A stretch of 32,000 bases of DNA from Halomicronema hongdechloris C2206 (lineage in GTDB: Bacteria; Cyanobacteriota; Cyanobacteriia; Phormidesmidales; Phormidesmidaceae): positions 240,001 through 272,000 of the forward strand of contig NZ_CP021983.2 in assembly GCF_002075285.3 (NCBI RefSeq), in the 5' to 3' direction. The stretch's first letter is position 1. Every line of letters starts with the position of its first letter. The notes under the pieces are model-generated. The model saw only the letters and a list, made by a program, of their open reading frames with translations, was not told the DNA's origin and made no database searches. This document shows positions 4,136 to 25,244 of this stretch, piece after piece. Made by a program: the position numbers and the translations under genes.

Positions 4136-4951
4136 CTAGCCTGCCATAGCCGCCTTCCAGAAAAAGTACACCGCCATCAGCCCCAGGAGTAGGCGAAACA
4201 TGTGACTGACCACGCGCTCGGGCAACTTCGGCAAAAAGCGAGTGCTGATCTGGGCTCCGGCCAGACCACCAACCCCCAGGAGCAAGCCGGTTTCAAACTG
4301 CACGTTGCCGCTGATGGCATGCCAACCACAGGCGGCCAGGGCAATGATCACAATCGCCCCCAAACTCGTCTGCACCGCCAGTTTAATCGGCTCCCCCAGC
4401 AATACAATCTGCAAGGGCACCATGACCACTCCGCCGCCCACCCCAAAGAGCCCCGCTAAGAAGCCGGCGAGGCTACCAATCATCAACCGTGATACTACCG
4501 GCCGCTGTTGCCAGCCAGGCCGCTCTGGCTCCAGGGTCGTCCCCCGGGCAACCACAGTGGAAACCTGCCCCCCATAATGGGCCACCACCTGCTTACGCAG
4601 CCCCACCAGGTAGATATTGAGCAGCAGAAACAGGCCAAAAACCGCCAGCAGCCCATACTCGGGAAACAGATTAGCCAATTCCTGGCCCACCCAAGCCGTA
4701 AAGAGGGCCGGCAGCCCCAGCCAGCAAACCCGCCACAGATTCAAGTAGCCCATGCGCCAGTTCTGCAGACTGCCCTGAGACAGGGACGTGACGACAATGG
4801 CCAGACTGCTGGAGGCCACCGCCTGCACAGCTGGTACCCCCAGGGCCACCATAATCGGCACCAGCACCGTCCCCCCGCCAATGCCCAAGAACCCGGCTAG
4901 GATACCGGCAACCACTCCAGCCCCCAGCAGCACCAACAGACCTGAGTCCAT
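4136..4951 (-). CDS. TauE/SafE (DUF81) family sulfite/anion exporter, membrane protein
   Basis: 271-aa polytopic hydrophobic ORF with the duplicated G-rich helices (GFLGIGGGTVLVP ... GLFGVGGGVVMVP) typical of TauE/SafE. Confidence 0.8.
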   Translation of the reverse strand: MDSGLLVLLGAGVVAGILAGFLGIGGGTVLVPIMVALGVPAVQAVASSSLAIVVTSLSQGSLQNWRMGYLNLWRVCWLGLPALFTAWVGQELANLFPEYGLLAVFGLFLLLNIYLVGLRKQVVAHYGGQVSTVVARGTTLEPERPGWQQRPVVSRLMIGSLAGFLAGLFGVGGGVVMVPLQIVLLGEPIKLAVQTSLGAIVIIALAACGWHAISGNVQFETGLLLGVGGLAGAQISTRFLPKLPERVVSHMFRLLLGLMAVYFFWKAAMAG

Positions 4952-4954
4952 TGG

Positions 4955-6421
4955 CTAGCTCAGCACCCACTGCACCAGGGTGCGCACACCATAGCCCGTC
5001 GCTCCCGGAGGGTGGTAGGGTCCTTCTTTTTCACTCCACACCGGCCCAGCAATGTCTAAATGGGCCCAGTTGGTGTCTTTGACGAATTGCTTCAAGAACA
5101 GGGCGGCAGTAATGGAGCCGCCGGGACGAGGGCCGGTATTTTTCATGTCGGCCACCACCGATTTCATGCCTTCGAAGTATTTTTCCTCGAGGGGCATGCG
5201 CCAGAGCTTTTCCCCGGCAGTTTCTGCTGCCTGGCTCAACGCCTGAGCCAGATCATCGTAGGGACTGAACAGGCTGCCAATGTCATCTCCTAGGGCGATG
5301 ATACTGGCTCCGGTCAGGGTGGCCAGATCCACCATGGCGTCGAGTCCCAACTTCTCGGCAAAGACCAGGGCATCGGCCAGGGTCAACCGGCCCTCGGCAT
5401 CGGTGTTATTGACTTCGATGGTTTTGCCGTTGGAGGCGGTCAAAATATCTCCTGGGCGCAGGGCATGGCCGCTAATCATGTTCTCGGTGGCGGCACTGAT
5501 GAAGTGCACTTCCACATCTGGCTGCAACTCACCGATGGTCTTGGCGGTGCCAAAGGTGGCGGCGGCACCGCCCATGTCGATCTTCATGGTCTCGATGCCA
5601 CTGCCGGACACCTTCAAATTGAGGCCCCCGGAGTCGAAGGTGAGGCCCTTGCCGATGATGGCCAGCTTCCGGCGCGGCGTGCCGTTGGGGCGATAGGTCA
5701 GGTGGATAAACTTGGGCGGCAGATCTGAGGCTTGCGCCACGCCGAGATAGGCTCCCATGCCTAATTTTTCACAGTCTTCTCGCTCCAGCACCTCTAACTC
5801 CATGCCATAGGTGCTGGCAATCTCGGCGGCGGTTTCGGCCAGCTTGGCCGGGGTGACCACGTTAGGCGGGGCCGAGACCAAATCGCGGGCTAAAATTACC
5901 CCGTGACAAACCGCCCAGGCGGTTTGGATGGCCGCCTCTTGCCCTGGTAGCTCCAGCAAAGACACCTGCTCTAGGGGTTTGCTTTGGGTATCGGATTCGG
6001 ATTTGAAGCGCGTGTCTTCGTAGAGAGCCAGGATGATGCCTTCGGCCATGGCTTGGGCGGCCATGGCTGGGTCAACACTGCCCCAGGGTAAACTCAGCCC
6101 TAGCTGGCCACTCTTCTCGGCCTTGGCCAGACGGGCGGCACTGGCCGCTGCCCGCCGCAGGGACTCTGAGGTCACCGTGTCGGCAGCCCCAAGCCCGACG
6201 AGTCCTAGTTTGCGGACGGTACTGCCCACCCGAGTGCTAGCCGTATCGCCGACTTTCCCCTTGAAGTCCACTTCATCGACGAGTTCTTGGATCAGGCCGC
6301 TCACTCGGCCGTCAAGCTCTGCTAAACGACCCGACAGGGGCAAATCTGCTTCGGTGAGGCCGATGGCTAGACAGTCACCGGACCAGGTTAAACACGATTG
6401 ATCTGAGGCGTAAAACTCCAT
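4955..6421 (-). CDS. pepA: leucyl aminopeptidase (M17)
   Basis: 488-aa ORF with M17 signature [14 protein letters not shown] and [10 protein letters not shown]. Confidence 0.9.
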
Positions 6422-6562
6422 GGTTGTCCTACTAAATTGGTGAGCTGATAGGGCTTAGCATTGCTTCGATTGGATCACAGGACGGTGGCTGGGGCAATGG
6501 TGCCACCCAATCCTGCAAAAGTTTGCTAGAACTCTTATCAGGTTTACTGTATACCGTGTCCC

Positions 6563-6972
6563 GTGTTTCGACAGATCAAGGCTAAGGTCCCTCTGCTAGC
6601 TATGGTAGGTGTCGGTGCCCTGTCTTTGGGCATGGCCATGGCATTGCTGTCATCGTTAGGATGGCGGCGCTGGCGTCCCGATATCCTAGGCCTGCCCTAG
6701 AACAGGTCGCTGAGACCGAGTCCACGGCAGTGCTGACATTGGCTGCACTGGCCCCGCAGCAGCGGTCGGCTCGTCTGCAGGCTATGGCCCAGGCCCCACC
6801 CTCTCTCAACCAATATCGGGCTCGCTACCTGTTGGCGGTGGATTTGGTCGCCCAGGGCAAGGCATTGCAAGCCCTGGAATGGCTGCAGGAGCTAGAGCAA
6901 GGGTATCCGGTGCTGGCTCCCTATGTGCTGCAGACAAGGGCCCAGGACCCAAATGGCGGCCGGTCAATCTGA
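6563..6972 (+). pseudogene. 5' portion of the lytic transglycosylase gene, split over other reading frames
   Basis: Frame 2 from GTG 6563 or ATG 6602 gives a signal-anchor-like peptide (FRQIKAKVPLLAMVGVGALSLGMAMALLSSLGWRRWR) ending at TAG 6698-6700. Frame 1 (6661-6972) gives a TPR/Slt-like segment ...ARYLLAVDLVAQGKALQALEWLQELEQGYPVLAPYVLQTRAQ. The long ORF then resumes in frame 2. Confidence 0.55.
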
Positions 6973-8776
6973 GGCCGCGATCGCAACCTGGCAACAGTTA
7001 CGGCAGACCTATGGGGACGATCCGGCAGCGGCAGCAGCCCTCTACCAGCTGGGGCAGCATGATCAGCGCTACCTAGACCAGCTGTTGCAGCGGTTTCCGG
7101 CCCACCCCCGCAGCGTCGAGGTGGCCCTAGCGCGATTATCAACGGCTTCCGCTCCAGAGCAGATCCGCTCCCTGTTGCTGTTGGTGGCCCGCCATGGGCT
7201 CCATCATGCTGAGGCCGAGGCCGTTCTGAAGCGATTGGTGACCGAGTACGGCGCCTCTCTCCGCCCGGAAGACTGGCAAGCCATTGGCTTTGGCTATTGG
7301 AAAAAAGATATCTATGGCCAGGCGGGGCCTGCCTATGCCAAGGCCCCAGCCACGCCCCAAACCCTCTATCGCGCCGCCCGGGGATTGCAGATCGGGCAGC
7401 GCCGTGACGCTGCGATCGCAACCTACCGTCGCCTGGCCCAGGCCTTCCCTAAAGCACCAGAGACGGCCCAGGGACTCTTGCATCTGGCCACGCTGGTCCC
7501 GGCCCAAGACGCCCTGACCATCCTCGACCAGGTGATTCAACGCTTTCCCCAGCGAGCCGCCGAGGCCCTATCCCGGCGAGCCGACCGTCTGGAAGCATTG
7601 AACAGCCCCACCTCGGCTGCCCAGGCCCGCCAGTCCCTGTTGAGTCAATACCCGGAGGCAGAGGCCACCATCGAGTTGCGCCTCAACCGCGCCCGGGCGG
7701 CTGCCGCCCAGCAAAACTGGCAAGCTGCCATCGACTGGGTCGCCCCTATTTCTCAAGCTGACCTCACCACTGAGGCCGCCGCCGAGGCCATCTTCTGGCA
7801 GGGGAAATGGACCTTAAAAGCGGGCCGGAGTGACCAAGCCCAGCAGCTATTCGAGCAAGTCCTGCAAGCGCACCCCGACTCTTACTTTGCCTGGCGCGCG
7901 GCCGTAGCCCTGGGCTGGAACGTCGGTGACTTCACTACCCTGCGACACCAGCAGCCCTCGGTCACAGCGCCACCCCAGCGGGGGCCTCTCCCAGCCGGGT
8001 CTGCCGCCTTAGAGGAACTCTACCGGCTGGGCCAAGATCGCCTGGCCTGGAACCGCTGGCAAGTAGAGGTCGCCGACCCACAGCAGCTCACGGTCGATGA
8101 GCAGTTCACTGACGGTCTGATGCGGCTGGGCACTGGCGATCACCTCGATGGGATTTACCAACTCACTAGCCTGGCTAACCGAGACGACTCCCAGGCCCGA
8201 GTGCAGCAGTTGCAGCAAGCCCCCGACTACTGGCACGGCCTCTATCCGCTGCTATTTAGCAACTTGATCACCCATTGGTCCCAGCAGCGCCAGCTCAATC
8301 CCCTCCTGGTCACCGCCTTAATTCGGCAAGAATCGCGGTTTGAGCCCCAGATCCGCTCCGTCGCCGGGGCCGTGGGGCTAATGCAGGTGATGCCGGCCAC
8401 CGCCGACTGGATTCGCGGTCAGATTGGCCTCAACGACTATCGCCTCGACCATCCCGAGGACAATGTCAAACTCGGCACCTGGTATCTGGACTACACCCAC
8501 CGAGAGTATGACAATCACTCTTTGTTTGCGGTAGCTAGCTACAATGCCGGTCCCGGCAACGTGGCCCGTTGGCTCCGTCGGGGCGGCTTCCGAGATGCCG
8601 ATGAGTTTGCCGAACAAATTCCCTTCGCCGAAACTAAGGGCTATGTCGAGGCTGTCTTCGGCGGCTATTGGAACTATCTCAGGCTCCATGACCCAGCAAT
8701 AGCCCGTCTGCCAGGGATAAATGCCGTAGCCGACTCCTCGTCTGGGCTAATTTCCCACTACAATACTCACCGTTAG
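6923..8776 (+). CDS. soluble lytic murein transglycosylase (Slt70-like); longest intact frame
   Basis: 617-aa ORF. The C-terminal catalytic domain has QESRFEPQIRSVAGAVGLMQVMPATA and AYNAGPGNV motifs, preceded by a helical repeat N-domain. The true N-terminus appears to lie upstream in other frames. Confidence 0.8.
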   Translation: MCCRQGPRTQMAAGQSEAAIATWQQLRQTYGDDPAAAAALYQLGQHDQRYLDQLLQRFPAHPRSVEVALARLSTASAPEQIRSLLLLVARHGLHHAEAEAVLKRLVTEYGASLRPEDWQAIGFGYWKKDIYGQAGPAYAKAPATPQTLYRAARGLQIGQRRDAAIATYRRLAQAFPKAPETAQGLLHLATLVPAQDALTILDQVIQRFPQRAAEALSRRADRLEALNSPTSAAQARQSLLSQYPEAEATIELRLNRARAAAAQQNWQAAIDWVAPISQADLTTEAAAEAIFWQGKWTLKAGRSDQAQQLFEQVLQAHPDSYFAWRAAVALGWNVGDFTTLRHQQPSVTAPPQRGPLPAGSAALEELYRLGQDRLAWNRWQVEVADPQQLTVDEQFTDGLMRLGTGDHLDGIYQLTSLANRDDSQARVQQLQQAPDYWHGLYPLLFSNLITHWSQQRQLNPLLVTALIRQESRFEPQIRSVAGAVGLMQVMPATADWIRGQIGLNDYRLDHPEDNVKLGTWYLDYTHREYDNHSLFAVASYNAGPGNVARWLRRGGFRDADEFAEQIPFAETKGYVEAVFGGYWNYLRLHDPAIARLPGINAVADSSSGLISHYNTHR

Positions 8777-8812
8777 GGTAATGATGCGCATCCCCGGATT
8801 CAGCGAGGTACT

Positions 8813-9697
8813 GTGGCCAAGTTAGTCCCGGCTCAAGTCGAGCAACTGCGAGAGATTGGTGCCTACCTACGTCAGCTGCGGCAACAACAAGGCCGCACCC
8901 TGGAAGAGGTGGCCACTCAAATTTTTATTCGACCGGCTTTACTACATGCCCTAGAAGACGCCAATGCCGAGCTGTTACCAGAACCCGTCTTTGTGCAGGG
9001 GTTTATTCGGCGCTATGGTGATGCCCTGGGAATCAACGGCATTGAGGTGGCCAGCCAGTTCTCAGTCACCCCAGTCGCCGTATTACCAGACCCTGCGGCG
9101 GCAGAGGCTGACGGTGGCAATGGCATCGTCGATAAGCAAACGCAGCATGGCTTGAAGGTGTTGTCTAAGGCTGATCCCCAACCAACATTGACGCGAACTA
9201 AGCTAGCCTGGCTGGGGGGAGGGATAGTTGCGATCGCAGCCATAGCAGGAATCTGGGGATTGACCAGAGCTGGATGGCAGTGGCCCAGTAATTGGAGCGT
9301 GTCCTTACCCGAGCCGAGTCTTCCCGACCCGTCCTCTGAGACTGCCAGTGAGCCACCGGAGCCAACCTCTCCAGACCCGGCAGACTCAGTCACCATCTCT
9401 CCGGCTGAGGAAACCCCGGCCGAGGACCCCACGGCTGCTCCCGTGACCGTTCAGGTGGAATTAACCGCTCCCTCTTGGATGCGAGTCACCGTGGATGGCG
9501 AAACCATCTTCGAGGGGATCATGGGAAGTGGCGAGCAAGAAACCTGGAGTGGCGACCGTGAAGTGAAGCTAGTGGCCGGCAATGCCGGTGGTATCGAGCT
9601 TTCCCTCAATGGCAGTGAGCCCATGCCCTTAGGCGATAGCGGTGATGTCACTACCCTGACCCTGACGCCCACCACCGATCTCAACAGCCTGCGTTAG
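8813..9697 (+). CDS. RodZ-like HTH protein with C-terminal DUF4115-type domain
   Basis: GTG start. It has an N-terminal HTH (LRQLRQQQGRTLEEVATQIFIRPALLHALE), one TM helix, a Pro/Glu/Ser-rich linker and a C-terminal beta domain (VTVDGETIFEG...WSGDREVKLVAGNAGGIELSLNG). Confidence 0.7.
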   Translation: MAKLVPAQVEQLREIGAYLRQLRQQQGRTLEEVATQIFIRPALLHALEDANAELLPEPVFVQGFIRRYGDALGINGIEVASQFSVTPVAVLPDPAAAEADGGNGIVDKQTQHGLKVLSKADPQPTLTRTKLAWLGGGIVAIAAIAGIWGLTRAGWQWPSNWSVSLPEPSLPDPSSETASEPPEPTSPDPADSVTISPAEETPAEDPTAAPVTVQVELTAPSWMRVTVDGETIFEGIMGSGEQETWSGDREVKLVAGNAGGIELSLNGSEPMPLGDSGDVTTLTLTPTTDLNSLR

Positions 9698-13414: not shown

Positions 13415-14041
13415 ATGGTTCTTTCCCTCAATGACCGGCAATTGCTGGAAGGCCTGAAGCATCTTATTGCCCAGCATGGCTATTCGCCCACCATTCGTGA
13501 GCTGGAGACGCATTTGGGGATATCCTCACGCTCGGCGCTTCAGAATACCCTAGAGCGGCTACGGCAGCAGGGATGTCTTACCTGGCAGCTGGGGCGAGCC
13601 CGCACCTACCAATTACTCGCAGCAAATCTACCGTTGCAGGGCACCATCCAAGCCGGCTATCTGGTAGAGCATCCCACCGATACCCTGGAATATGTCTGGG
13701 TTCTGCCGGAGCACCCAGGGCAGCGCTACTTAGCTCAAGATTATGCCCTCAAGGTTTGTGGCGATAGCATGATTGACTTACAGATTTGCCAAGGGGATTT
13801 GGTGGTGATGCGGCCGACCAATGATCTGTGGAGCATAAAGGCGGGGCAGGTGGCAGCAGTCTGGATCGAGGGGGAAGGAGCCACTCTGAAACGCCTATAT
13901 TACCGAGAAGGCGATGCCTCAGTGATTCTAGAGTCAGGGAATCAGCATTGTCCCCGGCGTCAACTGTCCCGACATCAGATCGGCTTGCTAGGGGTATTAG
14001 TCAGTTCTCCTCAGAATTACTGGTATTCTGACCGTGGCTAG
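13415..14041 (+). CDS. lexA: LexA repressor (S24 peptidase)
   Basis: 208-aa ORF. N-terminal wHTH (GYSPTIRELETHLGISSRSALQNTLERL), a potential Ala-Gly cleavage site (IQAGY), catalytic GDSM serine and TLKR lysine. Confidence 0.85.
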   Translation: MVLSLNDRQLLEGLKHLIAQHGYSPTIRELETHLGISSRSALQNTLERLRQQGCLTWQLGRARTYQLLAANLPLQGTIQAGYLVEHPTDTLEYVWVLPEHPGQRYLAQDYALKVCGDSMIDLQICQGDLVVMRPTNDLWSIKAGQVAAVWIEGEGATLKRLYYREGDASVILESGNQHCPRRQLSRHQIGLLGVLVSSPQNYWYSDRG

Positions 14042-17084: not shown

Positions 17085-17506
17085 CTTCTAACGCTGTGGT
17101 GGATGGCGAAATCCCTAGCAGGAATCTGGTTCGAGTATAGGCGATGGTCAAAGACCTACCCCCCTGCCACTGGGATTTCGTTCATGATGTCATCACGCTG
17201 CACCCCACCTGCTGACGGATATCTTCATGAGTCTATCCTAGGCCGGTGGGGTGATGACAGCCGGTGAAGACGGTCACCTTCTGAAGCTTCAACTTAGAGG
17301 ATCCCGCTTCCGGGAAGTCTCGCCTCTTTCTGCTAGCCCAATTCTATGGCTACCGTCCTCGGCTCGGGGCGATGCTCCCCCAGCTAGCGTAGATGTATTG
17401 AGTATTACAATCTTCGCGGTCAAATCACCTCACCATCAGGAGAAAGCCATGCCCACACCGCCACTGCAGGCAAGAGGGGACTCACTCTGGGAGGGCTGAT
17501 GACACC

Positions 17507-18175
17507 ATGCGAATCCTATTGGTTGAAGATGATCATCACCTAGCGGCCTCCTTATCGGAAGCCCTTGAGGCCCAGCGTTATACCGTGGATGTGGCCCATG
17601 ATGGTGATATCGCCTGGCAGCAAATGACCCTGTTGTCCTATGACTTGATGCTGATGGATATTACCCTGCCCCAGGTGGATGGCTTGACCCTGTGTCAACG
17701 GTTGCGATCGCATGGCGTGGTTTCCCCGGTGCTGATGCTGACCGCCCGCGATACCAGCGGCGATAAAGTAGCCGGTCTTGATGCCGGTGCCGATGCCTAC
17801 ATGGTTAAGCCCTTCGACCTGTCCGAGTTGATTGCTCAAATTCGGGCCCTGCTGCGGCGAGGGCAAATGGCCCCACCCACGACTCTGCAGTGGGAACTCC
17901 TGCAGCTTAACCCAACCACCTACGACGTTACCTATCAGGATATCCCCATTCGCCTGACCCCTAAGGAGTTTGCCATTCTAGAACTGCTGCTGCGCCATGG
18001 CCGCCGGGTGCTCAGCCGTCACTTCATCCTGGAATCGATCTGGCAATTAGACGATCCCCCCGGCGAAGAAACCGTGAAAGCCCACCTGAAAGCCCTGCGG
18101 CAGAAGCTGTGTAAAGCAGGGGCCCCTAAGAACTTTATCGAAACCATGCATGGCTTAGGCTATCGCTTGAATTAG
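17507..18175 (+). CDS. OmpR-family response regulator
   Basis: 222-aa ORF. Receiver domain (MRILLVEDD...DLMLMDITLP...MLTAR...KPF) plus a winged-helix trans_reg_C domain (..LTPKEFAILELLLRH...GLGYRL). Confidence 0.9.
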   Translation: MRILLVEDDHHLAASLSEALEAQRYTVDVAHDGDIAWQQMTLLSYDLMLMDITLPQVDGLTLCQRLRSHGVVSPVLMLTARDTSGDKVAGLDAGADAYMVKPFDLSELIAQIRALLRRGQMAPPTTLQWELLQLNPTTYDVTYQDIPIRLTPKEFAILELLLRHGRRVLSRHFILESIWQLDDPPGEETVKAHLKALRQKLCKAGAPKNFIETMHGLGYRLN

Positions 18176-18342
18176 GAGATGGGCATCTTGATAATCCGTC
18201 TGCTTGGCCAAGTTACACCACCCTTCTGAGCAACACTGATCTCCAAGTGCCTTTGAAACTACTTTAAAGAAAGTATCAACTTAACCTATGTGCTTATAGC
18301 GTGGACTAGCTTAGGGAAATGTGATCTCAAACGCAGTGAAAA

Positions 18343-19722
18343 ATGTCTGATCTGCAAGATACTGCCTTACAGCTACTCCGTACTGCACTAGATAATCCAA
18401 CAGCTACATTTCGTGACAATCAATGGGAAGCAATTGAACAATTGTTGAATCCAGGGACACGCTTGTTAATGGTGCAACGAACTGGATGGGGAAAGAGTTT
18501 AATATATTTCTTAACTACACGTCTCTTACGCAATCGGGGAATGGGGCCAACTCTACTGATATCACCCCTCTTGGCTTTAATGAGAAATCAGATTGCTGCT
18601 GCTGAACGCATTGGACTTCAAGCTGTAACCATTAACTCTACCAATCAGAAAACATGGAGGGATATCCAAGAGAAGTTGCTGGCTGGGCAAGCTGATATAC
18701 TACTAATTTCGCCAGAACGCCTAGCAAATGAAGAATTTCAGGAAGAGATTCTATTGCCGCTGTCTACACAAAATGGCTTATCAGTTTCCCAACTTGAAGG
18801 AAAATTAAATCTTTCAAGAGGAAAAATCGAAAAAGTCTTAACCCTATTATCGGTAGAAGCCCCTTCTCCAGTCACAAAAATTAATGGTCACTGGCATTCT
18901 ACGCCTATTAACTATGAGATAGATCGAGAAAAGGTAGCCAAGCTAACTGAAATCAGAAAACGTGAACAAGCTCGGATGCTAAATTATATCAATACATATA
19001 ATTGCTTGATATTGTTTTTGGCTGAGGAACTAGATGACAATTCTACAACAGAATGCGGACGCTGCGCTGTATGCTTAGATCAGTCTCTAATTCCAGAAAC
19101 CTATTCTCTAAAAAAGGCTCAAGATGCCATATCTTTTCTACGTAGAACCGATCATACCATTACCCCACGAAAGCGTTGGCCTGCAGGTAGCTTTATTTCT
19201 TATTCATGGAGTGGAAATATTCCAATTACGTTACAAGCTGAGACCGGTCTAGCCTTATCACTCTGGGGAGATGCGGGTTGGGGAAGTTTAGTGAAGCAAG
19301 GAAAATATCAAGATAAATGCTTCAATGATCAATTAGTAGATGCTGTAAGTGAATTAATCCAATGCTGGAAGCCTGATCCGTTTCCGACATGGATAACTTG
19401 TGTACCTTCGTTAACTCGTCCTGAATTAGTTCCTAACTTTTCAGAACGTTTAGCCCGTAAGTTAAATCTGCCCTTTATATCTTGTGTCAGAAAAATAAGA
19501 CGTAATCATCCACAAAAAGATATGCAAAATAGTGTTAAACAAGCTCAAAACTTAGATGGGGTATTTGAAATTACTAGCTGGCAAGGAATAAAAGGCCCTG
19601 TGTTCTTGGTTGACGACATGGTAGATTCCCGCTGGACATTTACAGTAGTTACCGCTTTATTACATCAATCAGGCAGTGGTAGAGTCTTTCCATTAGCTCT
19701 AGCCCTCAACTCGCTTAGTTAG
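18343..19722 (+). CDS. RecQ-like helicase N-lobe fragment / winged-helix / Cys-cluster / ComF-type phosphoribosyltransferase fusion protein
   Basis: 459-aa ORF. The N-terminus aligns by eye with RecQ motifs 0/I/Ia/Ib (FRDNQWEAI, RTGWGKSL, LLISPLLALMRNQ, LISPERL). A RecQ-like Zn region follows (ECGRCAVC). The C-terminus is a ComF/PRTase fold (ITCVPS..., PVFLVDDMVDSRWT). No DExH box or motif VI was found. Confidence 0.75.
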   Translation: MSDLQDTALQLLRTALDNPTATFRDNQWEAIEQLLNPGTRLLMVQRTGWGKSLIYFLTTRLLRNRGMGPTLLISPLLALMRNQIAAAERIGLQAVTINSTNQKTWRDIQEKLLAGQADILLISPERLANEEFQEEILLPLSTQNGLSVSQLEGKLNLSRGKIEKVLTLLSVEAPSPVTKINGHWHSTPINYEIDREKVAKLTEIRKREQARMLNYINTYNCLILFLAEELDDNSTTECGRCAVCLDQSLIPETYSLKKAQDAISFLRRTDHTITPRKRWPAGSFISYSWSGNIPITLQAETGLALSLWGDAGWGSLVKQGKYQDKCFNDQLVDAVSELIQCWKPDPFPTWITCVPSLTRPELVPNFSERLARKLNLPFISCVRKIRRNHPQKDMQNSVKQAQNLDGVFEITSWQGIKGPVFLVDDMVDSRWTFTVVTALLHQSGSGRVFPLALALNSLS

Positions 19723-19731
19723 AGAGAATAG

Positions 19732-21039
19732 ATGGCAATACTGACACACATATTACAACCTGACACCCAGGCTATCTTGCTTCTATGCGCGGGGTTCGGT
19801 CAGTCGCGTCAAGTAGAGCCAAAGCCCTTGAGCCTCAGTGAGTATAACTCTCTGGCCCAAAAACTCCAACAGCAGCATTTACGTCCTGCCGATTTACTAT
19901 CCCCAGACGGACAAAGTTGGATTCAAAGCGAAGTTAATGGAAGCCTTAGTCCTCAAAGGATCGTCCATCTGTTAGAACGAGGGGCTATGTTGGCGGTTGC
20001 TGTTGAGAACTGGACTAGCAAGGGTTTGTGGATCTTAAGCCGTAGTGATGAGACCTATCCACAGCGACTTAAGCGTAAACTAAAACACTTCTCTCCTCCA
20101 ATTCTATATGGGGTAGGAAATCTGGCTTTACTATCAAAAGGGGGTTTAGCCGTGGTTGGTTCCCGAAGCATTGATGATGAGGGTCTTGGCTATACCCAAA
20201 GAATAGCTGAAAAGTGTGCTGAGCAAGGTATCCAAATCGTATCAGGTGGAGCAAGAGGTGTTGACCAAACCGCTATGCTAGCGTCTATTAACGCTGGAGG
20301 GACATCAATAGGGGTCTTGGCAGATAGTTTGATTAAAGCAGTTGTATCAACAAAGTATCGTGAAGGACTTCGCCAAGGACGGGTTGCTCTAGTCTCATCC
20401 TATGATCCCTCCGCTGGATTTAATGCTGGTAATGCAATGAACCGAAATAAGTATGTTTATGCATTAGCTGATCATGCTCTTGTCGTAAACTCTTCTTATG
20501 AAAAAGGTGGAACTTGGGCCGGAGCTAAGGAAGAATTAAAGAGAGAAAGCCATATCCCTGTTTGGGTTCGGCTAGAAGAAGACGTACCGCAAGGGAATCA
20601 TCAATTGGTTCAGCTAGGTGCTATACCCTTTCCGATAGAGCCTTGGAATCGTAACATATTAAACTTGCTAGAAGAAGCTAAACAACTTCATCGAGACAAA
20701 GCTCAAAAAAATACTTCAGAACAATTAGAGCTAAGCGAAATAAATAATCAAAAAGAACAACTGAGTAATATTGATATTCAGAAAAAAGAGCAACTTAAAA
20801 AATTTCCAAAAAATGCATATGAAGCAATTCTACCCTTACTTCTTTATCATTTAAGTGAACCTAAAAAAGATAAAGAAGTTGCTGAATTACTAGATGTTGC
20901 CATAGGCCAAGCAAGACTTTGGTTAAAGAAGGCTGTGCAGGAGGATCTTGTTAAAAAGGAGAAATCGAGTTATGCATTGAATCAAAATAATAGTCAATTA
21001 CAATTGTTGAAATTTAATTCAGTCTCTGCCGACATATAG
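19732..21039 (+). CDS. DprA/Smf-family (SLOG/Rossmann) DNA-processing protein homologue with a C-terminal winged-helix extension
   Basis: 435-aa ORF, 9 nt after the upstream stop. The core GGLAVVGSRSIDDEGLGYTQRIAEKCAEQGIQIVSGGARGVDQTAMLASINAGGTSIGVLADSL is the DprA signature. A K/E/Q-rich linker and a wHTH-like tail follow. Confidence 0.85.
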   Translation: MAILTHILQPDTQAILLLCAGFGQSRQVEPKPLSLSEYNSLAQKLQQQHLRPADLLSPDGQSWIQSEVNGSLSPQRIVHLLERGAMLAVAVENWTSKGLWILSRSDETYPQRLKRKLKHFSPPILYGVGNLALLSKGGLAVVGSRSIDDEGLGYTQRIAEKCAEQGIQIVSGGARGVDQTAMLASINAGGTSIGVLADSLIKAVVSTKYREGLRQGRVALVSSYDPSAGFNAGNAMNRNKYVYALADHALVVNSSYEKGGTWAGAKEELKRESHIPVWVRLEEDVPQGNHQLVQLGAIPFPIEPWNRNILNLLEEAKQLHRDKAQKNTSEQLELSEINNQKEQLSNIDIQKKEQLKKFPKNAYEAILPLLLYHLSEPKKDKEVAELLDVAIGQARLWLKKAVQEDLVKKEKSSYALNQNNSQLQLLKFNSVSADI

Positions 21040-21079
21040 TGTGGAGCTCTGGAGAATGCCTAACGGGCGTATTTAGTAG

Positions 21080-21426
21080 TCATGGGAGAAGATAGTGGGC
21101 GGATCTCGAACATGCGGGAATAGGGCCTCAAAGGCGTCCAGTCAAACAATCGGAGACGTGGGCCTGATCGTTCTCGAAGAGCCCAACTGGATCGACCTAG
21201 GCTTCCGATTCGCGCAACAGTTCTGGGGAAGAGGCTTCGCGACGGAAGTGGCCTCAGTGTAGGGCTAGGCCGCGTTCCAGAGACTCGGTCTCAACAAACT
21301 TAGCCTCTCTTCTTGCATCCTGAGAATGGGCCGTCCTTGCGGGTTCTTGAGAAGGCCGAGTTCCGCTTTATGGGGCAACGAGTGGTTCTCGGCATGTTGG
21401 TGGTTTGTTTCACCATGCAGTGGTGA
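21080..21426 (+). pseudogene. GNAT (RimJ/RimL-like) N-acetyltransferase remnant: 5'-truncated, two in-frame TAG stops and a frameshift
   Basis: Frame 2 reads ...IGDVGLIVLEEPNWIDLGFRFAQQFWGRGFATEVASV*G*AAFQRLGLNKL (stops at 21260 and 21266). Frame 1 then reads HPENGPSLRVLEKAEFRFMGQRVVLGMLVVCFTMQW* (TGA 21424-21426). The acetyl-CoA motif-A-like WGRGFATE is present, but the N-terminal ~40-60 codons are absent. Confidence 0.7.
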
Positions 21427-21478
21427 GGCGTCGGGTAGGCTGGATCAGTAGCTGTGATCAAAAGAACTGGCATAACAG

Positions 21479-23320
21479 CTACTCTATTTTGGGCAGCATC
21501 ACTGTGATGCAAGTCCCCCTCCCGGGCTGGCTGTGCACTGTCAAACACCCGTCCTGCAACTCAACACAGGTTTTCACCACCGCTAAACCTAGGCCCACTC
21601 CCGGCACCGATCCCACATTGGCCCCCCGGTAGAAGGCCTTAAATAGATTTTGCTGCGCTGTCAGGGGAATACCAATGCCTTGGTCAATGACTTGGAATTC
21701 CAGAATATCTGACTTGGCAGTCACAACCAACCGAATCAGACTGTCAGCAGCGGAGTATTTCACAGCATTGGAGAGCAAGTTGACCAAAATTGAGTGCAGC
21801 AGCTTCTTGTCCAAGTAGATCTTGGTATGGATAGCGTTACCCGACAAACTGAGCCGTTGATCTACCTGAGGCTGAATCTGGTCAAACACCTGACGACAAA
21901 AGGGGTCCAGCTCCACAATTTCTGGATTGACCTGCAGCTTACCGGCCTCAGCCCGGGTCAGGGTCAAAATATCATCCACTAACTGCCCCATGCGTCGAGC
22001 GGCTGCCTGAATGCGGTCAACCGTATTCATCTGTTGCTGAGGCGTGAGGGCATCACGATTAGCACTTAAGGATTGGGCGGAGATACTAATCACACTTAGG
22101 GGAGTGCGCAATTCGTGAGAGGCCATGGAAAACAAGCGTAACTTGAGATTACTCAGTTCTCGGGTACGCTCCAGTTCCGACTGCCAGCGAGACAAGTAAA
22201 TCAGCAAAATCGCCGTCATCAGTAAGCCGATCAGCACCGTGGCCAAGGCCGCCCAAGGGGGAGGGGAATAGGAGGGGGGTAGAAACAACAGGTGCCACTG
22301 CCGTTGCCCTACAGCTAGAGTTTGACTGCACTCTAAAGGCGTTGGACAGAGGGAGGTAGAGCGGAGCCAGCCAGACGATTTCCCTTCCGGCTCTGACCAT
22401 TTCCTAGCCTCATCCCCATCTGGCAATACTGTCTGGGTATCTCCGTCGTAAAACCCCAATAGCTTTTCGTCAGCCCTGGCGGTCTGATCCAAGATCCAGA
22501 AATCGATCTCGTGGTCCAAATCAGAGAGGGACTCTTCCACCACATCCGCCACCCGAAACACTCCCAGAATGTAGCCCTTCAGCTGTTGTCGTCGGGCTCT
22601 AGGGGTGGTGGCCGGCTGGTGATAAATGGGCAGAAATACCAAAAAGCTGTACTGGTTGTCTGCGGTTTCTTGCACCAGTTGAATACGGCCAGTGGCGGCT
22701 AGGGCGCCTGTGTCTCTGGCCTGCTCTAGGGCGATGCGACGGGTGTCGTCGGAGGCCAGATCGTAGCCCAGCGCCACTTCATTGGTTTGCCAGGGCTCTA
22801 GGAAGGTGACGGGGACATAGCTGCTGCGCTCTGCCGCCGGACGCAAAATCCCCGTAGCAGAGCGCTCGGTAATGCCTAGCTGCGATGGCCCCGAGGGGCC
22901 GGTCTGCGACCATCGCTCCGTCAGGGTTTGCAGCCACGCTTCATAGGCCGCGCGATCGCCATGGAGCACTAACGGCGCCCATTCCAGGGCCTGAATGCCG
23001 GGATAGGTCTGCACCGCCCGCTGCACGAATCGACTAAAGGCTTCGTCGGTGATGTCATTGGCATTGGCGGCATAAAAATCGCCGATAGCCAGCAACAACT
23101 CGTTATAGCGATTGGTAGTGCGCTGTAAGGCCGTGGTCAGGTTGCCGATTTGCCGTTGAAACTCTCCCTGCCGAGACAACTGTTCCCAACGACTGACCCA
23201 TGTCGTCGCCATCATGGTGGGTTCCAAACCCAAAGCCAAGATGAATCCGGCAGGGAAATAGCGGTGCAGGGAAGGCATTGGAGGCCAGTAAGAAATCCAA
23301 TTAAGAATGCCTATTGTCAC
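21479..23320 (-). CDS. sensor histidine kinase with periplasmic CHASE domain
   Basis: 613-aa ORF. It has CHASE-like sequence (..YPGIQALEWAPLV..., SYVPVTFLEPWQTNEVALGYDLASDDTRRIALEQARDTG), a TM helix, the HisKA H-box (SMASHELRTPL) and an HATPase_c domain (N, G1, G2 boxes). The start could be the internal MPSLHRY. Confidence 0.85.
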   Translation of the reverse strand: MTIGILNWISYWPPMPSLHRYFPAGFILALGLEPTMMATTWVSRWEQLSRQGEFQRQIGNLTTALQRTTNRYNELLLAIGDFYAANANDITDEAFSRFVQRAVQTYPGIQALEWAPLVLHGDRAAYEAWLQTLTERWSQTGPSGPSQLGITERSATGILRPAAERSSYVPVTFLEPWQTNEVALGYDLASDDTRRIALEQARDTGALAATGRIQLVQETADNQYSFLVFLPIYHQPATTPRARRQQLKGYILGVFRVADVVEESLSDLDHEIDFWILDQTARADEKLLGFYDGDTQTVLPDGDEARKWSEPEGKSSGWLRSTSLCPTPLECSQTLAVGQRQWHLLFLPPSYSPPPWAALATVLIGLLMTAILLIYLSRWQSELERTRELSNLKLRLFSMASHELRTPLSVISISAQSLSANRDALTPQQQMNTVDRIQAAARRMGQLVDDILTLTRAEAGKLQVNPEIVELDPFCRQVFDQIQPQVDQRLSLSGNAIHTKIYLDKKLLHSILVNLLSNAVKYSAADSLIRLVVTAKSDILEFQVIDQGIGIPLTAQQNLFKAFYRGANVGSVPGVGLGLAVVKTCVELQDGCLTVHSQPGRGTCITVMLPKIE

Positions 23321-23552
23321 ACAGGTTTTGTCAGCAAGAAAGGCAAGATCTGAGCTTTAAAATCTACAAGGCAGATCTTCCCATTTTCTTCCCGTTTTCT
23401 TTCCGAAATTTTGCTGCAGCTACTAGTAAGGTGATTCCTAACTTTCAGACAAAGACGAGACTGGCTTTTCTTAAAGTGTAGCGATTTTTACTCTTTTTTG
23501 AAAAGTATCTGGGAAGCCATTTTTGCCCCCTTCAACACTGACTTTATCTGCC

Positions 23553-23918
23553 ATGAGACGACGACGCTTACTGAAAACCAGCCTCGGCTTAACAGTCGGT
23601 CTAACCCTAGCCAATGGCCTCAAAAGCCTGTAGTTCTCGACCCACAGCCGATGCCCCCTGCAGAATCAACCGCAGCAGGCACCAAGCCCTCGCGACGCCA
23701 GTTGACGGTGGTGCAGGGGGGCGGCTTCCCCAACAGCCTGGACCTGCATCGGTTGGGCACTAAACCGTCCGGCCTATGGTATCTCCTGGGCCATATACGA
23801 CCGGTTGATGACGTTTTCTGGTACCAAGGAGTCAATGGCCCGATGGATCCCTTTCCTATGACTACACGGTGTTGGAGCCTGAAATTGGCGGAAAGCTGGG
23901 AAATGGCTTGAGGACGGC
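23553..23918 (+). pseudogene. Disrupted 5' part of the ABC substrate-binding protein gene (Tat signal plus first ~120 codons spread over three frames)
   Basis: ATG 23553 gives the Tat-type signal MRRRRLLKTSLGLTVGLTLANGLKSL, then TAG at 23631. Protein-like segments follow in changing frames: RRQLTVVQGGGFPNSLDLHRLGT (f2), NRPAYGISWAIYDRLMTFSGTKE (f3), YDYTVLEPE (f1), LAESWEMA (f2), EDGMSFTFF (f3). Confidence 0.6.
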
Positions 23919-25244
23919 ATGTCATTCACCTTTTTTCCTGCGGCAAGATGCACCTTCCACGATGGCACCCCGGTGACGGCCAATGACGTCAAGTGTCCTA
24001 CGACAGGGCCGTGTCCATTGGCGGCTTTCCACACCTTTCAGATGAAAGCCGGTGCTCTGGAAAGTCCAGACCAGTTTGAAGTGGTCGATGACCACACCTT
24101 CCGGGTCAAGTTTCTGCGGCCCGACAAGCTGACCATGATCGACATGGCCGTGCCGATTCCGGTGGTGATCAACGCTGAGTTGGTGAAGCCCCATCTGACT
24201 GAAGCGGATCCCTGGGGGGCCGAGTGGTTAAACAGCAACGATGCCGGCGGCGGCGCCTACACGGTGGCGGAATTTAAGCCGAATGAGCGGATCGTGCTGC
24301 AGCGGTTCGATGACTGGAAGTCTGGCCCGCCGCCGCAGATTCAAGAGGTGATTGTGCTGAATGTGCCGGAGACCGGCAATCGCCGTGCCCTGCTGGAGAA
24401 AGGCGATATCGACATCAACTACGACCTGTCGGAAAAGGACCAGAAAGAACTCTCGGAGATGGGCAAGTTCACCATGGTCTCGACCCCCATTGAGAACTGT
24501 CTGTACTCCGTCGATATGCACGCCAATCCTCAGCTGAAAGGAGCCGAGAACCCCTTTGCCGATGTCAAGGTGCGGCAGGCGGTGGCCTATGCCGTTCCCT
24601 ACGACGCCATCATGGAAACGGCCTGTATGGTCAGGCGGTGCCCATGTACCGCAGAGGGAACTTTCGAGCCCGATGCCACCACGTGGCCTCAACCCACCCC
24701 CTATAAGACTGACTTGGCCATGGCCAAGAAACTCATGGCCGAGTCCAGCTATCCGGATGGGTTCGAGACCACCCTGGCCTTCGATATGGGTACCAAAGAA
24801 TGGGCCGAACCGGCGGTGGTGCTGATTCAGGAAGCTTTGGCGGAACTGGGCATTACAGTCAATATCGAAAAGGTGCCCAATGCCAACTTCCGCTCGGTGC
24901 TGGTGGAAAAAAGCCGTCCCATGATCATCAATAACTTCGGCGGCTGGCTCAACTACCCGGACTATTTCTTCTTCTATGCCTACCACGGCCAAGATGCCAC
25001 TTTTAACGGCAGCTCCTACCAGAACCCGGAGATGGACAAGCTGATCGAGGCGGCCCTGGCGTCAAAACCGGGGGAGCTCGAGTACGAAGAGAATGTCACC
25101 GGCTTCATCCAGATGGCCTGGCAGGAGGTACCGCGAGTGCCGTTGGTGCAGCCGAAGCTATCGGTGGCGATGCAACCCAGTGTTAGCGGCTATCAGTACT
25201 GGTTCCACCGCCAGTTAGACTTCCGGCAGTTGCAGAAGGCGTAA
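23919..25244 (+). CDS. ABC transporter substrate-binding protein, family 5 (peptide/nickel/opine type); longest open frame of a probably disrupted gene
   Basis: 441-aa ORF with family-5 SBP features (FHDGTPVTANDV..., ..RIVLQRFDDW.., ..NNFGGWLNYPD..). It lacks its own signal peptide, which lies upstream in another frame. Confidence 0.75.
   Translation: MSFTFFPAARCTFHDGTPVTANDVKCPTTGPCPLAAFHTFQMKAGALESPDQFEVVDDHTFRVKFLRPDKLTMIDMAVPIPVVINAELVKPHLTEADPWGAEWLNSNDAGGGAYTVAEFKPNERIVLQRFDDWKSGPPPQIQEVIVLNVPETGNRRALLEKGDIDINYDLSEKDQKELSEMGKFTMVSTPIENCLYSVDMHANPQLKGAENPFADVKVRQAVAYAVPYDAIMETACMVRRCPCTAEGTFEPDATTWPQPTPYKTDLAMAKKLMAESSYPDGFETTLAFDMGTKEWAEPAVVLIQEALAELGITVNIEKVPNANFRSVLVEKSRPMIINNFGGWLNYPDYFFFYAYHGQDATFNGSSYQNPEMDKLIEAALASKPGELEYEENVTGFIQMAWQEVPRVPLVQPKLSVAMQPSVSGYQYWFHRQLDFRQLQKA

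Follow-up and report, generated by a model that had tools for sequence, protein, structure and literature searches.

We analysed 32,000 nucleotides (nt) of DNA from the cyanobacterium Halomicronema hongdechloris C2206 (contig NZ_CP021983.2, positions 240,001 to 272,000 of the forward strand; this whole stretch is called the window, and all positions are given in its coordinates), in which two co-oriented genes form a 2.9-kb low-GC cassette. The pair is, with near certainty, a member of the toxin-antitoxin (TA) and phage-defence family PsyrTA/RqlHI whose toxin gene carries a deletion of the helicase core, and it is best explained, in our judgement probably, as a degenerating PsyrTA copy that is no longer a working defence system. 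Gene 1, the open reading frame (ORF) 18343..19722 (459 residues), is the toxin gene psyrT/rqlH, and gene 2, the ORF 19732..21039 (435 residues), is the antitoxin gene psyrA/rqlI; both lie on the forward strand, the antitoxin gene following the toxin gene after 9 nt, as an earlier note made from the letters alone had described them. The features of the locus are as follows (GC3, GC content at third codon positions; PRTase, phosphoribosyltransferase; PRPP, phosphoribosyl pyrophosphate; AF2, AlphaFold2).

18184..21064, no strand: psyrTA cassette, a low-GC module, most likely horizontally acquired (blastn to the metagenomic relative L002; GC and GC3)
18343..19722, + strand: toxin gene psyrT/rqlH, shortened in frame by an internal deletion to 459 residues from ~700 (PADLOC PsyrT, E 3.5e-156)
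18343..18768, + strand: remnant of the RecQ-like ATPase N-lobe, residues 1-142, with motif 0, Walker A and motifs Ia and Ib (Pfam, TIGR01389, Foldseek)
18769..18779, + strand: deletion junction, 708 nt (236 codons) being absent relative to the metagenomic relatives L001, L002 and L003 (codon and DNA alignments, blastn)
18769..18927, + strand: RqlH-specific linker, residues 143-195, a helix-turn-helix plus beta-hairpin (winged-helix-like; AF2 model)
19003..19074, + strand: tetracysteine zinc-binding motif C221/C238/C241/C244 (invariance in the family, weak RecQ_Zn_bind match)
19375..19719, + strand: ComF/PurF-like PRTase domain, residues 345-459, with the PRPP-loop motif VFLVDDMVDSRWT at 19600-19638 (Foldseek, invariant residues)
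19720..19731, + strand: premature TAG and three vestigial codons (TAG AGA GAA TAG) before the ATG of psyrA (sequence compared with relatives)
19732..21039, + strand: DprA-like antitoxin gene psyrA/rqlI at its full length of 435 residues (PADLOC PsyrA, Pfam DNA_processg_A)

The assignment to PsyrTA/RqlHI follows from profile searches with both proteins. Gene 1 matched the PADLOC profile PsyrT (PDLC03928) with 519 bits, in two blocks that skip profile positions ~136-368, residues 135-457 corresponding to positions 369-685 of 689; gene 2 matched PsyrA (PDLC03927) at E 1.9e-139 (residues 8-414 on positions 3-394 of 398), and its 435 residues compare with 426-435 in relatives. Set against the features of the family, the locus has the profile matches, the gene order, the zinc site and the PRTase motif, and what it lacks is a complete helicase domain. 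The gene 1 product is 100% identical to the NCBI entry 'putative ATP-dependent DNA helicase RecQ [Halomicronema hongdechloris C2206]'; a bona fide RecQ was rejected, because gene 1 scores 96.5 bits against a cut-off of 640.2 for TIGR01389 and 56.3 against 219.8 for TIGR00614, with only positions 12-123 of the profile matched. The ShosT profile (PDLC03962) gave E 0.048 (11.5 bits) for gene 1, and the ShosA profile E 5.3e-31 for gene 2, far below the PsyrA match. The earlier note had proposed a conflict or defence module, which was right in kind (a PRTase-bearing toxin with a DprA-like antitoxin) but not in the family to which it pointed: the label DprA-PPRT that it named does exist in DefenseFinder output, where it names the ShosTA-like pair of DprA and PRTase genes from P2 hotspots, and the ShosT score speaks against that match here.

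The system itself has been described in the literature. Shotgun cloning revealed PsyrTA to be a toxin-antitoxin pair (Sberro 2013), the genetics of RqlHI were studied in extraintestinal pathogenic E. coli (F11) (Russell & Mulvey 2015), and protection against phages was reported for PsyrTA expressed in E. coli (Millman et al. 2022, preprint), presumably via abortive infection. Published evidence that A neutralises T and that the pair protects against phage covers E. coli and the donor systems of Millman 2022. PsyrT/RqlH is a RecQ-like 3'-5' DNA helicase joined by a linker and a four-cysteine zinc domain to a ComF-like PRTase; the biochemistry of M. smegmatis RqlH (Ordonez, Unciuleac & Shuman 2012) defined this architecture as an ATPase (1-346), an RqlH-specific linker, a tetracysteine zinc domain (435-499) and, at the C-terminus, a ComF-like PRTase, the same domain plan as in the full-length relatives of gene 1. 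The full helicase-linker-zinc-PRTase architecture has been characterised since 2012, and the extension of helicase N-lobe, winged helix and zinc site on the PRTase, which the earlier note took to be uncharacterised, had been covered by the work on M. smegmatis RqlH in 2012 and on E. coli RqlHI in 2015. The window pair resembles PsyrTA/RqlHI in having T upstream of A, a RecQ-like N-terminus, the linker, the four-cysteine zinc site and the ComF-like PRTase in the toxin, and a DprA core with a winged helix-turn-helix (wHTH) in the antitoxin; the toxin differs in lacking 236 residues (motifs II-VI plus the first part of the linker) as well as three residues at the C-terminus, and the cassette differs in its cyanobacterial host and in its position, where it is flanked by signalling genes and stands by itself, outside any defence island.

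The deletion shows in protein and DNA alignments. An alignment of the 120 best homologues from a search of 5.8 billion proteins, gene 1 itself being one of them, shows a single clean gap of 236 columns, found in gene 1 alone, on either side of which it is colinear with the ~700-residue PsyrT/RqlH at 76-82% identity; the other 119 homologues are 631-738 residues long and every one has both the DEAD and the Helicase_C domain of Pfam, the latter being absent from gene 1. At the DNA level exactly 708 nt are absent relative to each of L001, L002 and L003, in frame and with the junction near position 18772, where the microhomology amounts to TGG/ATGG only and the two blastn blocks against L002 overlap (18770-18779). 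The missing span opens shortly ahead of motif II (VVDEAHCISDWGHDF), takes in everything up to motif VI (QQVGRAGR) and runs on into the linker. It comprises one half of RecA lobe 1, the whole second lobe and the start of the linker, and it includes the aspartate of the DEAH motif, equivalent to D148 of RqlH (D148A abolishes helicase activity). In the relatives, constraint on the protein is strongest in this segment (omega, i.e., dN/dS, ~0.045). A second lesion lies at the other end of the gene, which is truncated by three codons: where gene 1 reads AGT TAG AGA GAA TAG ATG, the relatives read S-Q-G-E-stop abutting the Met of the next gene, and the 9-nt gap between the genes is a CAG to TAG nonsense change followed by three vestigial ancestral codons. 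Likewise, the RecQ 'fragment' is a deletion scar and not a designed domain boundary, and what the earlier note had taken for a new fusion of parts turns out to be a one-off deletion derivative of the ~700-residue PsyrT/RqlH.

Internally deleted forms are found elsewhere in the family. Among the 150 best representatives from a library of 1.84 billion proteins, none shares the junction of gene 1, and six (P0126, P0175, P0211, P0254, P0261 and P0268) are other internally deleted PsyrT single ORFs with different breakpoints, four of which keep the N-terminal helicase stub and the PRTase. From these sequences, it seems that the toxin gene has lost internal segments repeatedly and independently. A conserved family of ~460-residue forms was considered and ruled out: the short representatives are N-terminally cut fragments or independent deletions elsewhere in the gene. 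In Shigella sonnei 53G, an insertion element naturally interrupts rqlH (Russell & Mulvey 2015) and uncouples the helicase part from the PRTase part while rqlI is retained, and the authors read this as a modulation of toxicity; there an insertion sequence separates the domains, whereas in the window a clean in-frame deletion has left one ORF.

What remains of the toxin can be recognised domain by domain, and the parts that the earlier note listed were confirmed. The RecQ-like motifs at the N-terminus are supported by Pfam DEAD (residues 25-129, covering only positions 2-107 of 167), by TIGR01389 (recQ; residues 21-136, positions 12-123 of 591) and by solved RecQ structures, which a sequence search of the PDB aligned to residues 4-136, and the Walker A motif QRTGWGKS (residues 45-52) is intact. 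The cysteine cluster holds up as well: C221, C238, C241 and C244 are all present and invariant in the family alignments, the match to Pfam RecQ_Zn_bind (residues 200-245) being weak (E 0.0035, below the gathering score). For the ComF-type PRTase, the matches in Pfam and TIGRFAM are weak (E 0.16 and 0.1), and the domain is supported by the PsyrT profile and by Foldseek, which matched the C-terminal ~130 residues to the PRTase domain of PurF (1ecb_C, E 8.5e-4); no C-terminal match was obtained in the sequence-only search of the PDB, in which the RecQ N-lobe alone matched, and the top 50 of the fold search contained PurF-type PRTases and neither ComFC nor ShosT. The PRPP loop VDDMVDS (residues 423-429) is intact, and the family is invariant at D424, D425, V427, S429, W431 and T432; this acidic loop is the likely equivalent of the DIVD663 motif of E. 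coli RqlH. The AF2 model of gene 1 has a mean predicted local distance difference test (pLDDT) score of 70 and a predicted template modelling score (pTM) of 0.38, and Foldseek superposed it on RecQ 4q47_A over 138 columns with a root-mean-square deviation of 4.5 A. In this model the segment described as winged-helix-like does show a helix-turn-helix plus hairpin (helices 148-155 and 159-170, strands 177-180 and 183-186), though at low confidence (pLDDT only ~58-69), and residues 143-195 are the counterpart of what Ordonez et al. (2012) named the 'RqlH-specific linker'.

The antitoxin gene is complete. Pfam DNA_processg_A covers residues 95-297 of gene 2 (E 6.7e-39), and alignments to solved DprA (3uqz) and ShosA (9vzo) show that the DprA motifs VVGSR, SGGARGVD and NRN are kept. 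The DprA/Smf core and the C-terminal wHTH announced for this protein are both present, with the qualification that the SLOG match is weak and so are the wHTH matches (residues 370-412).

The genetics of RqlHI suggest what the loss of the motor might mean. The toxicity of RqlH (DNA damage, SOS induction, filamentation and mutagenesis) needs the PRTase pocket and is abolished by D663A, the PRTase domain alone is nontoxic, and RqlI co-precipitates with RqlH only when the PRTase domain is present (Russell & Mulvey 2015); the toxicity is restrained by PsyrA/RqlI and by the helicase's own activity, and the helicase-dead K49A and D148A proteins are still toxic in E. coli and are incompletely rescued by RqlI (Russell & Mulvey 2015). 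RqlH-(1-505) has ATPase, translocase and helicase activities, none of which would be expected from the window copy, since motifs II-VI are gone. The protein of 459 residues would be unable to hydrolyse ATP or to translocate on DNA, and whatever the helicase contributes, be it restraint of the PRTase or the sensing of phage DNA and regulation, would be lost. The result would most likely be a toxin remnant without a motor, next to an intact antitoxin that either keeps it harmless or merely accompanies it; as the locus is tolerated by its host, such a remnant would be inert or unstable, or neutralised by PsyrA.

The evidence for decay of the remnant is mixed. Changes private to gene 1 in the C-terminal part of the toxin number 22 nonsynonymous (N) to 7 synonymous (S), which differs from 49N:58S in the relatives (p 0.006) and from 12N:19S in the antitoxin (Fisher p 0.005). 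Several observations nevertheless weigh against a copy that has simply fallen out of use. The test of private changes involves four taxa and small counts. Gene 1 is altered at one of 75 invariant and three of 189 at least 95%-conserved family positions (family median 2), pairwise omega is 0.08-0.24 in every region, and these well-kept residues imply that any neutral drift of the remnant has been brief and that selection could still act on it. No relaxation is seen in the antitoxin, its 12N:19S being indistinguishable from the relatives, which would fit a toxin remnant that is still dangerous. Furthermore, the deletion is in frame and has kept the PRTase motif and the RqlI-binding domain, and by analogy the loss of the helicase would in itself be no proof of a loss of toxicity, since helicase-dead RqlH mutants are toxic.

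These points bear on a rival reading, a functional minimal PsyrTA in which the helicase-less toxin (N-lobe stub, linker, zinc site and PRTase) is genotoxic and neutralised by PsyrA, giving an addiction module and perhaps abortive-infection defence triggered via the antitoxin. It would account for the in-frame deletion with PRPP loop, zinc site and RqlI-binding PRTase domain intact, for the conserved positions that were kept and for the undiminished purifying selection on the antitoxin; it agrees with the toxicity of the helicase-dead point mutants and with the four other in-frame deletion variants that retain the N-terminus and the PRTase, and it has a working parallel in ShosTA, which functions with a helicase-free PRTase toxin and a DprA-like antitoxin that senses single-stranded DNA (ssDNA) and RecA. 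Nonetheless we regard it as unlikely, because the junction is unique to gene 1 and gives no sign of selection maintaining the short form, the PRTase domain of RqlH alone is nontoxic, native folding of half a RecA lobe is unlikely, and the C-terminal part of the toxin shows an excess of private amino-acid changes; moreover, the incomplete rescue of helicase-dead mutants by RqlI in E. coli implies that a toxic form without helicase would be costly. The broader idea that in-frame removal of the helicase is a recurrent route by which a PsyrTA-type system turns into a ShosTA-like, helicase-free working module seems to us rather improbable. If true, such a naturally minimised toxin would mark the smallest part of RqlH that is still toxic.

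Three further explanations are each very improbable. An uncharacterised designed fusion of a RecQ N-lobe fragment with a ComF-type PRTase, forming a new two-gene defence system with its DprA-like partner, would suit the domains, which are truly present, and the NCBI name, which is just 'putative RecQ helicase', but the colinearity with full-length PsyrT/RqlH on both sides of the 236-codon gap contradicts it, such an architecture is absent as a family from both the 120 close homologues and the 150 library representatives, and the full architecture was already published. A competence module for the handling of ssDNA, akin to ComFA/ComFC/DprA, is hardly more credible: ComFA/ComFC/DprA share distant domains with the pair (a superfamily 2 helicase, a protein with zinc finger and PRTase-like domain, and the DprA Rossmann fold), the remote homology is measurable (comF TIGR00201, E 0.1; dprA TIGR00732, E 6.7e-30) and the resemblance of RqlHI to competence proteins was discussed by Russell & Mulvey, yet the window proteins score far under the family cut-offs (12.5 against 233.55 bits for comF, 103.9 against 191.15 bits for dprA), no competence genes occur near the pair in the window or at the relatives' loci, the composition is foreign, and the family behaves as a toxin-antitoxin and phage-defence system. 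The location outside a competence locus, as the earlier note had it, is in line with this absence of synteny. Finally, the short gene could be an artefact of assembly or sequencing and the true psyrT full-length; the sequence is known from one assembly only (one member, one contig), and a search of the literature on the quality of the H. hongdechloris genome assembly returned nothing relevant. Against an artefact stand the loss of precisely 708 nt, in frame and with merely 3-4 nt of microhomology, the lack in the relatives of a long internal repeat able to cause assembly collapse, and the source itself, a 5.58-Mb chromosome-scale sequence.

ShosTA (DprA-PPRT or Rst_DprA-PPRT in DefenseFinder; Kimelman 2012, Rousset 2022, Pu 2025, NAR 2026) also consists of a PRTase toxin and a DprA-like antitoxin; its toxicity needs PRPP binding, and its DprA-like antitoxin binds ssDNA and acts through ssDNA and RecA. 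PsyrA of the window resembles ShosA, both by the profile match and by the match to structure 9vzo. ShosT, however, has a pyrophosphatase domain and neither a helicase nor a zinc part. Direct binding to the toxin is also lacking in ShosA, unlike RqlI, which is co-precipitated with the PRTase domain of RqlH.

The pairing of gene 1 homologues with DprA-like genes had been named in advance by the earlier note as a point on which its proposal should be judged, and pairing is what we found. Among the 36 best-scoring GTDB loci, all 34 with enough downstream sequence are paired with a PsyrA-like gene; the three closest relatives (L001-L003, metagenomic) are all paired, T then A, and so is a copy on a Nostoc plasmid. 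Over a wider set of 80 loci from GTDB species representatives, a PsyrA-like gene lies downstream on the same strand in 41, and the solo copies belong mostly to Actinomycetota, with some Chloroflexota and one Halorubrum. This distribution reproduces the published split, in which rqlH is paired in Gram-negatives and solo in Gram-positives (Russell & Mulvey 2015); RqlH of mycobacteria and other actinobacteria is solo, without a DprA-like partner, unlike the window pair. One relative adjoins a PD-T7-4-like gene and lies near a homologue of a patatin-type effector. In phage records no full-length PsyrT was found, the matches being to generic helicases at no more than 63% query coverage.

The Nostoc copy deserves mention in its own right. 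Plasmid pNPM3 (NZ_CP026685.1, 44.8 kb; locus L084) carries a full-length psyrTA at 4307-9324, immediately downstream of parA-parB, with 68.9% identity to relative P0003 and annotated merely as 'RecQ family helicase' and 'DprA'; this pair fits a role in plasmid maintenance and a plasmid route of spread among cyanobacteria. Full-length RqlH-like genes with 46-47% identity also occur in haloarchaea, in Halorubrum cibi (L052), where no PsyrA-like gene was detectable downstream, and among plasmid matches from Halomicrobium and Halanaeroarchaeum (H6-H8).

In the window, the locus most likely represents a recent horizontal acquisition. The GC content has a trough at 18-21.5 kb, and the module 18184-21064 has 41.1% GC against 56.5% in the rest of the window, with GC3 of 0.30 and 0.31 in genes 1 and 2 against 0.65 and 0.63 in the flanking regulator and kinase genes, so that the description of a compositionally foreign segment holding the pair alone, with no other defence system adjoining, was accurate. 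The edges of the cassette were set by homology to L002, which matches 18184-18779 and 18770-21064 at 84-86% identity: the cassette starts 9 nt past the stop codon of the OmpR-type response regulator and ends 25 nt past that of psyrA. It abuts one further feature:

21152..21396, + strand: GNAT acetyltransferase pseudogene remnant, 3' half only (Pfam Acetyltransf_3 on the reconstructed peptide)

The reconstructed peptide matches positions 68-138 of 138 of Acetyltransf_3 (E 5.8e-12); its pieces lie in two frames, with two in-frame stops between them and a frameshift, and the 5' half is gone where the cassette sits. It appears that insertion of the cassette, or an associated deletion, destroyed the GNAT gene. 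A foreign and recent origin is concluded from the GC and GC3 contrast, the abutting 5'-truncated pseudogene and the occurrence of relatives in unrelated contexts. Flanking direct and inverted repeats were limited to short ones at chance level, no tRNA gene or integrase lies at the locus, and a scan of 17400-21600 gave no terminators and 7 promoter-like sites where 6.2 would be expected. A milder GC dip at 9.8-11.4 kb, in which TatC and a universal stress protein are encoded, was ruled out as a second island.

The neighbours are housekeeping and signalling genes (SmpB, an ATP-grasp protein, the OmpR-type regulator, a CHASE histidine kinase and LexA), and the pair stands alone between signalling genes, outside any multi-system defence island. 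A LexA-type repressor gene (LexA_DNA_bind and Peptidase_S24; 13415-14041, + strand) lies ~4 kb upstream of the cassette, and its proximity to a toxin family that induces SOS is probably a coincidence. Farther downstream, the ORF of a family-5 solute-binding protein (23919-25244, + strand, 441 residues) begins at position 28 of the SBP_bac_5 profile, without the usual N-terminal region, and the ORF upstream of it (23498-23911, no Pfam match) ends in a stretch similar to the 'LAESWE' region at the N-terminus of these binding proteins; 23498-25244 may be a frameshift-split gene or contain a sequencing error.

The finding bears mainly on annotation. The NCBI 'putative RecQ helicase' of H. hongdechloris is the toxin of a known defence and TA system and cannot be a helicase, and a defence census based on hits of hidden Markov models would count the locus as PsyrTA despite the lost motor core. 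For the toxin family, the window provides a natural domain-deletion allele, in which the PRTase, the zinc domain and the antitoxin are kept while motifs II-VI are gone, and which is pertinent to what the PRTase requires from residues 1-508.

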